Shown in pieces: positions 16,670 through 53,696 of a stretch of DNA of 64,000 bases. Source of the stretch: Octopus sinensis. Its lineage: Eukaryota. The notes under the pieces were generated by a model that ran no database searches, was not told the origin of the DNA, and saw only the letters and a list, made by a program, of their open reading frames with translations. The stretch is taken from NCBI RefSeq assembly GCF_006345805.1, contig NC_043001.1, forward strand, positions 2,170,001-2,234,000, read 5' to 3'. How positions within the stretch are numbered: the stretch's first letter is position 1; every line of letters begins with the position of its first letter. The position numbers and the translations under genes were made by a program.

Positions 16670-17700
16670 GTAACCCTTTTGCATTTATATTGCTTTGCCA
16701 GTTATCCTACATTCACATATGAGTAATGCTTTCCTCTTTTGACTTACATAGTCTTCAGTGGGAATCTTTTATCCAATTAGTCCTTGATGCTTGATCTTGT
16801 GTAGCTACTACCAAGCTTTCTGTCTCCCTTTTCAACTTTCCTTTCTGCAATCATAGTCATGTCTCAATAGTACTATTTACTGAAACTATCTTTGAGAATC
16901 TACCATGCAACGCCTTCTCCTGCCAGTTAGATAGTTTCTGTTCTTTTCTCTGGTTTTTAAGTTCACTTGGTGTTTTGGTTTCCTTTTGTCTTGCTGGGAC
17001 TCTAGCAGCTTTTAGTAAACTTTCTTTACTTGTACCTACATAAGAGTTTATATCTATTCTAGCTAACTCCACGCAGTCTTCTACTGATATTAACCCTATT
17101 CCACCTTCCTCTCTAGATAAGTATAAATGTGCTACTCCTGCCCTTGGGTGGAGTCCTCCATTCACATTGAATTCCATTCCAGTTCTTCTGTCTACCTTTG
17201 CTAATTCAGTTTTTGTCCAATCTACAAAAGCTGCTGAGTATCGAAGTAATGATATAGCCCAAGTATTTACAGCCTTCACAAGATTCGAACCATTTACCTT
17301 TGACTTCATCAGCTTCCTCACTCTTCTCATGTACTCCTTGTCAATTTTCATTTTCCTTCCTGCAATTGGTACTCCCTCAGATTCTAATACTCCTAGATAC
17401 TTATAACTCTCTCTCCCCCTATCAATGTTTTTAATGTCTGGCCATCAGGTAATTGGATGCCTTCGCTGCTCACTACCTGTCCCCTTCTCATGACTAATAT
17501 TGCACACTTATCTCTGCCAAATTCCATGCCCATATCTTTGCTGAAGAGTCTTGCAGTCTGTATTAAGGAATCTATTTCTTTTTCATTCTTACTAAAAAGC
17601 TTCAGATCATCCATGTAGAGCAAATGGTTAATTTTTCTATTACCATTTTTGAACTGATTCACTGCCTTTGCCTTCCTTAATATTAAACTGATGGTGATCA
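16670..17700 (-). mobile_element. Decayed R4/Dong-like non-LTR retrotransposon fragment (RT domain 5 onward)
   Basis: ORFs 17393-17701 (INHLLYMDDLKLF..DMGMEFGRDKCA) and 16857-17351 (AVNTWAISLLRYS..LHPRAGVAHLYLSREEGGIGL..KALHG) are homologous to the 52053 ORF. The 5' end abuts (TTA)n. Confidence 0.88.
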
Positions 17701-30594: not shown

Positions 30595-31230
30595 CAGTTT
30601 CAAATTTTGGCACAAGGCCAGCAATTGTATGGAGAAGCGATAAGTCAATTACATTGACTCTCAGTATGTTACTGGTACTTATTTTGCCAGCCCTAAAAGA
30701 ATAAAAGGCAAAGTCAACCTCAGTGGAATTTGAACTCAGAGTGTAAAGATGGACAAAATACTGCTAAGCAGATTTCTTGGTGTACGAAAAGGATTTTGTG
30801 AGCTTTGCTACCTGATTCATGTTGATGTAACAAAGCAGCAAGCTGGTACAATCGTTAGCATGTTGGGCGAAATGCACAGCGGTATTTCGTCTGTCTTTAC
30901 GTTCTGAGTTCAAATTCTGCTGAGGTCGACTTTGCCTTTCATTCTTTCAGGGTTGATTAAATAAGTACCAGTTACGCACTGGGGTCGATGCAATCGACTT
31001 AATCCGTTTGTCTGTCCTTGTTTGTCCTCTCTGTGTTTAGCCCCTTGTGGGTAGTAAAGAAATAGGTATTTCATCTGCCGTTGTGTTCTGAGTTTAAATT
31101 CTGCCAAGGTCGACTTTGCCTTTCATCCTTTCGGAGTCAATAAATAAAGTACCAGTTGCATAGTGGGGTCGATCTAATTGACTGGCCCTCTCCCCCCAAA
31201 TTTCGGGCATTGTGCCTTGAGTAGGAAAGA
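30595..31230. mobile_element. Family B tRNA-derived SINEs: minus copy 30595-30810 and plus compound copy 30834-31230
   Basis: B-box GAGTTCAAATTC followed by GCCTTTCATCCTTTCGGRGTCRATAAATAAAGTACCAG, which resembles the Meta/MESC SINE central domain. Other copies at ~24535-24660 (-), 43600-43795, 50822-51035, 58350-58548 and 62690-62770 (-). Confidence 0.8.
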
Positions 31231-39965: not shown

Positions 39966-41282
39966 TATATATGTATATATATATGTATATATATATATAT
40001 ATTTGTGTGTGTATATATGTATATGTACGTATATATCTATATCTATCTATCTTTATATACCTGTATTTATATGTATAAATATAAATATATCACGGTATCG
40101 CAGTGTTGACTAGACTATCGGATGCTGTTCTACATTGCTGGTCACAATGCGCTTCACATTGTTCTATTTTCTTGTATTCTGTTGCAGGGTTAACCATTCA
40201 CAGCTGAGTGAACTGGAGCAATGTGAAATGAAGTGTTTTGCTCAAGAACAGAATACATCACCTGGTCAGGGAATTGAACTCTTGATCTCGTGGGTGTGAG
40301 TGCAATGGCCTAACCACTAGACCATCCATCTTCAAATATACGTATGTATATTTGTATATTTTGGTTTAATGATAGAATGTCTCTCATGCTTGCAAAAGAT
40401 GTAGGTTCAAATTCCACAAGTTGGTCAACATTTCACTTCTGCTAATCAAAGGAATTTTTTTACTCTATATTAAAAATATTTTAAATGTCAAATATAATTT
40501 GTAGTGTATTATGGTGGTGCAACAAAATACTGTGTCCCAACAGGTCCTTAATGTATACGTACCCACTTTCAGAAACGTGTCTTATATGTAAAATTGGTTC
40601 ATCCAATAATGTTACACTGCTGTATTTAGGGGTTATTTAAGTAATAGGTTCATGGATGATTAATGGGCTGTAAAAAGCACCCACTACACTCATGGAATGG
40701 TTGACGTGAGGAAGGGCATCCGGCTGTTGAAACCTTGTCAGATCAGATTGGAGCCTGGTGCAGCCTCCTGGCTCATCAGTCTTCAGTCAAACGTAGTGTA
40801 CTGGGTGCTTTTTATGTGGCACCAACACCAGTGAGGTCACCAAACAACTTGCAAGACAAAAACAAGAAAAAGAGAAATCCCCTTTGGTTGAGTGAGGATG
40901 TATTTGAGATTGGGAGATGGCTTTATGCCAGATACTAAGGGACTAAATATGACAGAGGTACAAGCACAGGTGTCTTTGTATAAGAGGAGAAACATGGCTA
41001 CCATGCATTATGTAAGGTTGAGTGGGGTTAGTTTGAAAGAAGATAGAAATGGTGGTGATGTGGTGCCATAGCAGCATATGGACATTGGATCAAAGGTTAA
41101 GAAGAGGGAGGAGGGGAATTTCATTAAAGTATGAGAAGAGGGTAATAGATGGGGGTAGGAGTGAATGTATTGAAGGATGGACTATGGTGAAGTTGCAGTT
41201 GGTGGTAGATATCAATAATCAGGAGGTGAGGTGAGGTAAGAGTGGCTCAGAAAGATAGAAAGTGGGGAGAAGCTAAAATCTG

Positions 41283-41692
41283 AAGTAATATATTTCTAAA
41301 TCTCTGAGAGAGATTTATGCAATAGCAGCAAGATAAGGTGATGGTATGTTGTCAACTTAATGTGACAGTCCCATAAAAGGGAAGAATGCTACTGTTATTT
41401 AGCCCTAGGAAACACCGTTGGACTTGACATGTTTCCTGTGTCCTTATGTTTTCAAAGTGGAGACAAGCACCTCCACCCAGCAAAGCCAGCATCCAGAGAC
41501 TAGTTTCAGAGTCATTGCTTATCATCAGTCTGGAGTAGCATGGCTTGATAGCTGTCGATGCCTATTCACCTCTGAAAACATATATTTCAAGTGAAAGTCC
41601 AACAGGAAACGATGTTTCCTAGGGCTAAATAACAGTAGCATTGTTCCCTTTCATGGGACTGTCACATTAAGTTGACAACATACTATCACTTT
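41283..41692 (-). mobile_element. 410-bp foldback insertion with a 13-bp TSD and an apical hammerhead motif
   Basis: AAGCTAAAATCTG occurs at both 41270-41282 and 41693-41705. Outer inverted arms 41335-41419 and 41608-41692 differ at 5 of 85 positions. Imperfect pairing continues inward to the hammerhead. Confidence 0.88.
41492..41534 (-). ncRNA. Minimal type I hammerhead ribozyme motif
   Basis: Reads TCCAGA-CTGATGA-taagcaatgactct-GAAAC-TA-GTC-TCTGGA: perfect 6-bp stem I, intact core, palindromic stem III (ACTAGT), GUC triplet. Stem II is weak. Confidence 0.75.
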
Positions 41693-42294
41693 AAGCTAAA
41701 ATCTGTTGATACATTAAAAAGTAGGAAGTCGATTTGCAAGGTTTAAGAGTAGGGGAAAGATGTACAGTGAAAGAGATAGAGGTTAGGGGTACTTAGGGAT
41801 GGCTATAGTGAGTGGGGAAACAATGGTAAATATGAAAGGGGGTTGATGATAATAGCAGGTATGAAAGGTGTTGAATATGAGGTATGACAGATCTAAGAAA
41901 TAGCTGAGAGTAGAGAAGAGAGACAACCGAGAGAGGAAGGCACAAAAAAGGGGTAATGGATGGACAATTGTAAGAATGAAGGAAAGATATTAACAGGAAG
42001 TGGTTCTTGGGTGAGAAGGATATAAATGGCAGCACAAAATAATTGGTGATGAAATATGTTTTGATTCTGCTCTCAAATGATTACAGCCACTGAGTAGTGC
42101 CATAGTTAGAGGATTGACGGAGGGATGACTATTTTGAGAAGATGATATGAGGGAATGTTTGACAGGGGCAGATTAGATGCAGAGGCAGAGTCCAGCATGT
42201 TTAGGCATAGACAAAATGTTTTAGGCTCTTACTTTCACAGGGACAAATGGATTTTTTTACTCTAGTAACACTTAATAACTCTTCTAATGATGTA

Positions 42295-51877: not shown

Positions 51878-53696
51878 TTTTTTTTCTTCTTTCAAATTTG
51901 CTTCCATTTCTTGCCGAGTTTCTTCCCGACTCCTAGGGCAAAGAAACTCATAGTATACATTGGTAGGCCATTAAACCAAACTCACTAGTTCGTTCATTTA
52001 AAAAAATTTTTTTTTTTAAAGTTAAATTAAAATACATGAGCAGCAACAGTTCTCACATCGACAATGCTCTTCTCAATATGTGTGATGTACCAGTTAAGAC
52101 AATCTTTTGCACTTCTTGCAGGGATGGTAAGCCAGGGATCATTCTCATATAATTTTCGGTTCCCTTCTTGATCATTCCTAGTGCTCCTACGATCACTGGT
52201 ATTGTAACCGCCTTGAGATGCCACATTTTCTCAATTTCAATTAGTAGGTCTTTATATTTTCTGAGCTTGTCAAACTCTTTCGCTGAGATATTATGATCAC
52301 AGGGGATGCTCATGTCGATCAATAAGCAAACTTTATTGTTTTGGTCTTTCACAACAATATCTGGTTTATTGGCCTTGATGGTTCGGTCTGTATGTACTGG
52401 AAAGTCCCACAGAATGGTTACATTTTCTCCTTCAGTTACAGCCTCAGGGTGGTGATTATACCACTTGTCGGCAGTTTTGATATTGTAATGCCGACTTATT
52501 AGCCAGTGGAAATATTGGCCAACTCTGTCATGTCTTAATTTATACTCCACTGGTGCTAAGACTTTACATCCAGAGATTAGGTGGTCCACTGTTTCAATCA
52601 TGTCGTTGCAGAATCGGCATTTTGGGTCTGCTCCATTTTTCATCACATTGGCCTGGTAGTTCCGGGTTAATAGGCTTTGATCTTGAGCAGCCAGGATGAA
52701 ACCTTCGCTCTCTGCTTTTAGCCCTGAGCTCCATAGCCACTGATGGGTTTGCTTCTGGTCAACATCAGCTTGTTTGCTGCGGGGCACATATTTGCCGTGC
52801 AGAGGTTTCTCCTCATACCTATCAGCCAATTGCTCGTGCGCTTTTTTCATTGCCATCATTTTCACCTTCTTTGCAACAATAGTTGCCGTACTTCCCTCGG
52901 GTTGTTCAGTTTGGGTATCCTGCACGAGATCAATAGCAAATTTTTTGCTTTCCTTTATGATAGAATGAAGCTTCTTTCGTCTCTCGTGAATTTCCACGAG
53001 CTTTAGCATCCAGTTATTCGATATTTCGAGATATTTGGCCAGTCCAATTGTGGTTGTTTTGTAAGCTAGTTCAAATTGGATCAGCCCTCGACCTCCTTGG
53101 GCTCTGGGAAAGTAAAGGCGATCTACGTCTGCCTTTGGGTGGTGCATCCTATTACAACTCAGCAGCTTGCGTATTTTTCTATCTATATTCTTTACTTCAC
53201 TCATATTCCAGTTCAACACATTGTAGCTATAAGTAACAACTGGAACTGCTAAGGAATTTATAGCTAACACCTTGTAACGTGCATTTAGTTCAGATTTCAG
53301 GACTGCACGAACTCTCCTATAACATTCCTTCCTGATCTTCTCTTTCATGCTTGCATGCTGAATACCAGAGCCTTCATTTATCCCTAAATATTTGTATGTT
53401 TGTTCTTGCTCAAGCTCTCTTATGACTGTGTCAACATCTAACACGACTGAATTTGTGGTCTTCACTTTCCCTTTCTGGAAAGTGGCCTTGGCACACTTCT
53501 CAAGTCCAAACTCCATCCCGATGTCATCGCTGAATGCTTTCACGGTGCGCAATAGGCCTTCAAGTTCATTATTGTCTTTACCATAAAGTTTTAAGTCATC
53601 CATATAAAATAGATGGCTTATTTTTTTATTGGCAATTCTATACCCATACCCTGTTCTGTTTAATTCACTTGTAAGGGGTATTAGGGCTATTAGGGC
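51878..53696 (-). mobile_element. 5'-truncated young R4/Dong-like RLE non-LTR retrotransposon flanked by (TAA)n on both sides
   Basis: (TTA)n lies at 51858-51877 and 53697-53728. There is a ~175-bp 3' UTR, and the 5' junction carries a duplicated AGCCCTAAT. Confidence 0.93.
52053..53603 (-). CDS. C-terminal half of a non-LTR retrotransposon protein: RT domains 5-7, thumb, CCHC knuckle, restriction-like endonuclease. The ATG is the M of YMDD, not a true start
   Basis: Upstream in frame is ..KISHLFY-MDDLKLY. Further motifs are YKYLG, CRFC..ETVDHLISGC, RHD, NKPDIVV..LIDMSIP..K..KY. No stop over 516 aa. Confidence 0.92.
   Translation of the reverse strand: MDDLKLYGKDNNELEGLLRTVKAFSDDIGMEFGLEKCAKATFQKGKVKTTNSVVLDVDTVIRELEQEQTYKYLGINEGSGIQHASMKEKIRKECYRRVRAVLKSELNARYKVLAINSLAVPVVTYSYNVLNWNMSEVKNIDRKIRKLLSCNRMHHPKADVDRLYFPRAQGGRGLIQFELAYKTTTIGLAKYLEISNNWMLKLVEIHERRKKLHSIIKESKKFAIDLVQDTQTEQPEGSTATIVAKKVKMMAMKKAHEQLADRYEEKPLHGKYVPRSKQADVDQKQTHQWLWSSGLKAESEGFILAAQDQSLLTRNYQANVMKNGADPKCRFCNDMIETVDHLISGCKVLAPVEYKLRHDRVGQYFHWLISRHYNIKTADKWYNHHPEAVTEGENVTILWDFPVHTDRTIKANKPDIVVKDQNNKVCLLIDMSIPCDHNISAKEFDKLRKYKDLLIEIEKMWHLKAVTIPVIVGALGMIKKGTENYMRMIPGLPSLQEVQKIVLTGTSHILRRALSM

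Follow-up and report, generated by a model that had tools for sequence, protein, structure and literature searches.

Retrozymes of animals were defined by Cervera & de la Pena (2020; PMC7229834), and a preprint argues that they are non-autonomous Penelope-like elements, or PLEs (Li, Clavereau & Pollet 2026; 10.64898/2026.07.22.740005). The available portions of these works describe non-LTR retrozymes as low-GC, protein-free tandem monomers of ~350 nt that carry a type I hammerhead and have long target-site duplications (TSDs), all of which recur in the family described here. For PLE insertions, the accessible text describes an inverted 5' copy with a tail at one end (Craig et al., PMC8557442; Arkhipova et al., PMC3846280). 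In vitro, a Penelope protein cuts and extends both strands, and its reverse transcriptase (RT) starts at two internal sites, one on either side of the tail (Frangieh et al., PMC11167929). The origin of the inverted repeats and of the one-sided tail is stated to be open in the parts of PMC8557442 and PMC11167929 available.

The element taken by itself is a new member of a class already described in the 2020 paper and the 2026 preprint; what is added here is a quantified rule for the pairing of insertion ends, and the site-specific LINE parasites of retrozymes. The reading preferred here, with a probability of about 0.78, is a non-autonomous PLE, or non-LTR retrozyme, inserted through dual priming at the two sides of its tail, with LINEs entering at its transcription start and being moved as its cargo.

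An inverted copy in an old repeat

The element lies in a stretch of 64,000 nucleotides (the window), with its parts arranged as follows.

40830..42250, minus strand: old RTE-like 3' UTR hosting the element (approximate boundaries)
41270..41282, plus strand: TSD, left copy, 13 bp (direct-repeat comparison and family TSD statistics)
41283..41595, minus strand: long arm, close to a complete monomer (positions 24-342 of ~344), with the tail at its end
41283..41333, minus strand: Penelope-type tail between two fixed 3' ends (~53 nt in the family), containing a 9-bp hairpin
41445..41582, minus strand: intrinsic imperfect rod, monomer positions 34-172, extending hammerhead stem I
41492..41534, minus strand: minimal type I hammerhead with palindromic stem III (ACUAGU), predicted cut 41498/41497
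41542..41553, minus strand: site at which other copies carry L1-group LINE insertions, unoccupied in this copy and 25 nt from the ribozyme core on its upstream side
41579..41587, minus strand: TATA-like AT run, ~26-34 nt upstream of the LINE site (putative promoter element)
41596..41693, plus strand: short arm, inverted monomer positions 193-290, without a tail
41693..41705, plus strand: TSD, right copy (direct-repeat comparison)

The first-pass annotation had described a foldback bracketed by a direct repeat, and this description held in its particulars. The direct repeat is a 13-bp TSD, AAGCTAAAATCTG, with 100% identical copies at 41270-41282 and 41693-41705. The outer arms, given as ~85 bp with 5 mismatches, were recovered as 86 nt (41334-41419 against 41608-41693, 94% complementary), and the separate 9-bp hairpin in the unpaired end was located at 41297-41317. 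The foldback of the whole insert (-211 kcal/mol, z -19) was equalled by 0/100 shuffles, and the long arm folded by itself has a z of -3.5. The outer stem is the short arm (41596..41693) paired with 41334-41419, and the arms meet near 41594-41597, with ~2 nt of microhomology.

Relatives of the flanks (L269, L271 and L275; 65-77% identity) cross the insertion site unbroken, and several flank relatives adjoin an RTE-like ORF end on the opposite strand. Therefore the insertion into an RTE 3' UTR that was first proposed is supported, the UTR being old, RTE-like and of minus-strand orientation, with the RTE name itself being our assumption. Elsewhere the window holds a non-LTR retrotransposon fragment (52053-53696, minus; 547 codons, RT and zf-RVT) and a related fragment at 16857-17444, as well as a further ~360-bp self-complementary stretch at 30641-31001 (73% self-match), against which a hammerhead profile gave no match. 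A regular-expression search of the 64-kb window found no second hammerhead motif of this kind.

The minus-strand core reads as originally reported, with stem I formed by 41534-41529 and 41497-41492, CUGAUGA at 41528-41522, GAAAC-UA-GUC at 41507-41498, and cleavage predicted at 41498/41497. This copy has a lesion in stem II, a change of G10.1 to A at 41520, where 32/32 other copies listed have G, and the predicted ribozyme is probably weakened by it. The proposed comparison with Rfam gave nothing in its favour: with E allowed up to 10, the scan of the window element still returned no hammerhead, and a SNORD44 match to the core region, weak at E 7.2, was taken as chance.

Paired ends and the origin of the inversion

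Searching genome G000 (2.7 Gb) with the element gave 3048 candidates, and relatives are 83-91% identical among the 40 scored. The 36-nt ribozyme core has 93 exact matches in the same genome, with none for the control. The 90 loci examined comprised 30 from the similarity search and 60 exact core matches, taken in list order while skipping places already included. From one other search, 15/25 loci were dropped, as they matched an unrelated repeat within the query. The family unit is a monomer of 343-344 nt (~344 nt) whose 3' end reads back into its start, spaced at 340-347 nt in tandem copies (5 loci), such that it lies within the 150-450 nt range of the non-coding tandem units by which non-LTR retrozymes are recognised, and it contains a type I hammerhead. 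Exact TSDs of 9-14 bp (mode 12-13) flank 34/51 copies, compared with 5/500 mismatched (shuffled) pairs, and are 79% AT in the 30 listed; they exceed the >4 bp typical of the class, and have the variable length that the first-pass annotation predicted. Its description of a non-coding hammerhead retroelement is supported. Two consecutive units with a full hammerhead, the mark of an active retrozyme according to Li et al., are also present; at L013 there are two same-strand cores, one with a core change.

Copies end at two fixed 3' points, at about positions 290 and 343, which lie 53 nt apart and delimit the Penelope 'tail'. With ends sorted into broad classes (short, 262-300; long, 330 or more), the 57/90 copies that are head-to-head comprise 51 long+short, one short+short and no long+long combinations, and five with an eroded end. 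In the subset picked solely by an exact ribozyme match, 30/32 are long+short and two are eroded. A younger sister family (L226-L263), with a 352-nt unit, 1856 candidates at 94-100% identity and insertions in (TA)n, gave 21/21 long+short head-to-head copies among 38 loci, of which two look like one locus assembled twice, the query having favoured copies with at least one tail. One sister locus (L239, 1047-2087) retains three same-strand hammerhead cores. The TSDs of this family are not scorable, because (TA)n targets give the same null; it is the best candidate for activity assays.

Penelope-type mobilisation, which had been suggested from the single copy, is supported by its hallmarks: a one-sided tail, two fixed 3' ends, and partial-tandem and head-to-head inverted insertions with 5' truncation. 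The inverted 5'-truncated copy, the one-sided tail, the two fixed 3' ends, the AT-rich targets and the hammerhead upstream of the tail are all shared with PLE insertions in the available text of PMC3846280, PMC8557442 and PMC11167929. The differences are that the family has no ORF, that its tail is 53 nt rather than 30-40, that end pairing is here quantified (72/73 classifiable insertions), and that the arms are shown to share template variants. Compared with animal non-LTR retrozymes, it is the 57/90 sampled copies that are head-to-head with tail asymmetry that stand apart, the word 'inverted' being absent from the available portion of PMC7229834. From the end pairing and the Penelope literature, therefore, the rod in the window is the ordinary signature of Penelope insertion on an ORF-free unit. 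The feature is real, and the rod is a by-product of insertion rather than a fixed form of the element.

The two arms of an insertion also agree in sequence, at 87/92 polymorphic cells for 20 loci of the sister family (null 0.60) and at 187/240 for 45 loci of the family of the window element (null 0.59), in each case matched by 0/1000 shuffles. Therefore the arms come from a common template, unless conversion after insertion made them alike, as gene conversion could do. In the proposed mechanism, a Penelope-type RT-endonuclease acting in trans would make two staggered nicks, 12-13 bp apart, with, on the simplest reading, two RT active sites primed at these nicks. One cDNA would be primed at each side of the tail, the template being either a single RNA, in which case strands would be displaced, or a pair of RNAs from one source locus. 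Both cDNAs would extend upstream, halt at variable points and be joined, and the palindrome would result from the joining of these two upstream-running strands; loss of one cDNA would leave plain truncated or tandem copies. A search of literature titles found none on coupled use of the two RT start sites. The combination of one tail end and one short end, copied from the same template, is a clean genomic rule that is testable in the in vitro PAc system, and it bears on the question that the available text of PMC8557442 and PMC11167929 leaves open regarding Penelope inverted repeats and the one-sided tail.

The main alternative retains the family and has the inversion arise by self-priming, or snap-back, in which either one cDNA or an antisense template primes itself, as proposed in PMC3846280. 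It would account for the template variants common to both arms, the rod intrinsic to the unit could serve for folding back, and the tail arm is the longer in 17 of 47 inverted copies. However, in 25 of these 47 it is the arm without a tail that extends the further upstream (one is similar, and four are unclassified), beyond the stretch that the tail arm copied, and snap-back of a tail-primed cDNA cannot give such copies. Furthermore, only 2/27 junctions in a less biased set fall within 5 nt of the rod's pairing register, and a start site accounts better for the constant outer end at 290 (PMC11167929). Self-priming is therefore unlikely as the general route. The same 2/27 count was used to reject the inner rod as the homology joining two cDNAs, such that this is at most a minor route.

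Less probable still is a reading in which there is no independent retrozyme, and the copies are solo remnants of the 3' pLTR of an autonomous Penelope yet to be discovered. Heavy 5' truncation is common in PLE insertions, and in the majority sequence of the family a frame of 45 codons starts at an AUG within the core, as the PAc ORF does (PMC11167929). Against this, copies run straight from the tail end into monomer position 1, and all the long sequences found upstream proved to be LINE insertions with TSDs.

That the 360-nt foldback and its ~85-bp terminal arms are a conserved mobile unit, MITE-like or viroid-like, can be given almost no credence: the arms are near-perfect and the fold very stable in this copy, and the inner rod is intrinsic to the unit, but arm lengths and junctions vary widely among copies, 33/90 lack the head-to-head arrangement, several copies are in tandem, the tail falls beyond the arms at just one end, and TSDs range from 9 to 14 bp. 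The variable junctions largely refute it. The monomer alone folds with a z of -7.7, its imperfect rod at positions 34-172 extending stem I, and of the rod only this inner ~55-bp imperfect part belongs to the unit; the 86-bp outer stem derives from an inverted segment, the inner end of which varies among copies. The small size, lack of coding capacity and apparent terminal inverted repeats resemble a MITE, whereas the variable arm length, asymmetric tail, variable long TSDs and tandem forms do not, and there are no fixed repeats adjoining a TSD of fixed length. In annotation, thousands of such copies would be misassigned to MITEs, and the available text of a 2026 octopus repeat annotation (PMC13282606) mentions neither hammerheads nor ribozymes; G000 itself is probably octopus-like, to judge by its repeat content.

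A probable dimer-type hammerhead

The core is intact in 29/32 family copies, in agreement with the expectation that other copies would keep it. Sister families diverge widely (56% mean column identity), and stem III is palindromic in each: ACUAGU in the family of the window element, and ACUCGAGU or ACUCGGGU, ACCGUACGGU, ACCCGGGU and ACUGCAGU in others. Within family 3, only core position 7 varies freely. This retention of the palindrome across families, with the constancy of the family 3 core, points to selection on a dimer-type hammerhead in the source copies, as judged from sequence comparison; the suggestion that the palindromic stem III is suited to dimer action is supported. RNAcofold of the dimer gave no clean dimeric active fold.

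Metazoan PLE minimal hammerheads, in the available portion of PMC4209133, likewise have an extra base between 9 and 10.1, a G10.1-C11.1 pair, and a palindromic helix III with presumed dimer action; they differ in that stem I is extended here by the ~55-bp imperfect rod, and that stem II, which is short in the family, has 3 bp and a U-U. The axolotl HHR_Amex2 likewise has a U-U mismatch at its stem II base, according to the accessible text of PMC7229834 and 10.64898/2026.07.22.740005. In the portion of the preprint available, Li et al. report cleavage in only 1/9 dimers, and the PAc ribozyme requires protein and is dispensable for in vitro insertion (PMC11167929). The core AUG, which opens ~45 codons in the family majority sequence (approximately 41527-41390, minus, in the window, where a small deletion lies in the frame), recalls that of PAc, whose ORF starts inside its hammerhead; it may have arisen by chance.

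Three raw RNA runs, sampled at ~6% of each, from fragmented cDNA libraries and a species possibly other than that of the genome, held 752, 719 and 563 reads fitting the monomer at >=85%. They occur equally in both orientations, 87-90% continue into unlike sequence, and read ends show no pile-up on the monomer in these sampled, fragmented libraries. The reads look like read-through of dispersed copies. Their loose-end motif had 0 matches as a continuation past the tail.

LINE insertions at a fixed site

Some family copies have foreign sequence ending in AATAAA joined at monomer position 63-64. The left part of the monomer is retained, with positions 63-75 duplicated, in L095, L103, L192 and L133, and L191 retains its left flank with a shorter overlap. 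An autonomous Penelope 3' UTR was ruled out as the identity of these long upstream sequences, which are LINE insertions with TSDs. The exact junction pattern has 26 matches, of which 24 are LINE-like, and the native site has 112 exact matches.

The 3' ends of these LINEs were sorted by what they adjoin. Firstly, among 30 group-A loci, which were retrieved with one such 3' end, judged by eye and with some rows sharing a cluster, eight adjoin the window module, ten other hammerhead families, ten another LINE unit, and two something else. Secondly, eight of ten group-B ends adjoin the module, and two are tandem. Thirdly, the group-B RT has 39,909 candidates, many within ORFs of at least 1100 codons, and 20 autonomous 3' ends were taken from 105 of its rows (longest ORFs and top matches): seven adjoin sister modules, one a Penelope pLTR, two other hammerhead-like repeats (one antisense, one judged by eye), and one another LINE, with one cut by a contig end and eight unexplained. 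Thus 10/19 adjoin a hammerhead element and 9/19 do not. The eight beside unrecognised sequence are L280, L285, L281, L295, L279, L286, L293 and L296, and these sequences may be other promoter-bearing repeats. All three sets (18/30, 8/10 and 10/19) exceed the 20% of flanks of one kind that PMC4494074 uses to recognise target specificity.

What is kept at these insertions is position. TSDs at hammerhead elements are 13-18 bp, the distance from the site down to the ribozyme core is 24-28 nt in four retrozyme families and 46 nt in the Penelope pLTR, and a TATA-like run lies ~20-35 nt upstream of the site in 7/8 contexts shown. An intact two-ORF LINE (L301/L287; L301:560-5701; G000:C26:23424000-23431300) has ORFs of 478 and 1147 codons, with a CCHC knuckle in ORF1, and APE, RT and zf-RVT in ORF2 (E 8e-68 to human L1 ORF2p, 8e-24 to R2), this architecture and closest match placing the inserted LINEs in the L1 group. 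It lies in a Penelope pLTR, just below the TATA-like box and below CCAAT-like and TATTTAAA motifs, 46 nt above the pLTR hammerhead, with a 13-bp TSD verified against the empty pLTR in L186.

Three cases fit the retrotransposition of LINE and retrozyme as one composite by Penelope machinery. L299/L292 and L300/L290 carry one near-identical LINE in a sister retrozyme, with a TSD of ~18 bp; their upstream truncation points differ, and one has an inverted junction. At L097 the LINE 3' end and module are on both arms of a head-to-head insertion. The LINE site would be the transcription start, and LINE-bearing units would then be moved as Penelope cargo.

The LINE RT returned no named Tx1 reference, and we take the inserted LINEs to be of the Tx1 clade as a working assumption. 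Described members of that clade (Tx1L into Tx1D, Tx1-Mar into Mariner-N4; available text of PMC4494074) are alike in their APE-RT and CCHC-knuckle ORF1, fixed site in another element, tandem re-insertion, and possible hitchhiking and co-transcription. They differ from those found here, whose target is a hammerhead retrozyme or Penelope pLTR, and whose position relative to the ribozyme and TATA-like box is kept while the target sequence varies by family. Kojima (PMC4494074) lists Tx1 targets within other transposons, and neither hammerhead elements nor Penelope are among them in the portion available. Searches of literature titles, together with the available text of PMC8869645, gave nothing on LINEs targeting hammerhead or Penelope elements, and Repbase, Dfam or supplements may hold prior descriptions. 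These insertions would add a target class for site-specific non-LTR retrotransposons, possibly with position-guided targeting: a retrozyme family is a precise landing site for other retrotransposons, with its mirror-image end made anew at each insertion, of which the window element is one copy.

A broader arrangement in three layers can be offered only tentatively, at somewhat less than even odds. Penelope RT dimers would use each tail side once, and this once-per-event use would explain the inverted pLTR and the tail. Retrozymes would ride along, and L1/Tx1-type LINEs would find the starts of hammerhead-bearing Penelope and retrozyme promoters by position and not by sequence, seize the promoter, perhaps use the downstream ribozyme for their 3' end, and travel as cargo of at least 5 kb.

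Regarding the autonomous partner, genome G000 holds intact RT-GIY-YIG ORFs of 775-883 codons, and two such families, which we assume to be Neptune-like, carry their own hammerheads (by eye). An autonomous Penelope with the module of the window element was sought in 30 GIY-YIG loci and in 13 longer ones and not found, 150 of 5029 GIY-YIG candidates having been scored. Matches at L161, 2 kb from a family copy, and at L179 and L186, beside sister copies, were rejected as neighbours without a common module.

Several other repeats were observed at these loci. An abundant PLE family, presumably Neptune-like (L179:1793-2900, L172, L176-L182), has a pLTR with CCAAT/CRE-like repeats, a TATA box, a splice-donor-like site, a probable U3-A8 hammerhead variant and an optional ~33-nt tail. 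A separate 480-nt tandem hammerhead repeat has four units at L191:2727-4361, and a LINE is inserted antisense into this repeat family at L283. ORF1-only LINE derivatives of ~1.7-2 kb with a CCHC knuckle, which we take to be half-L1-like, form tandem stacks at the target site (L095:5396-7887, L091:6198-7925, L190-L194). Finally, a GIY-YIG PLE fragment, presumably Hydra-like, lies between 167-bp inverted repeats of 97% identity at L091:8661-9901.
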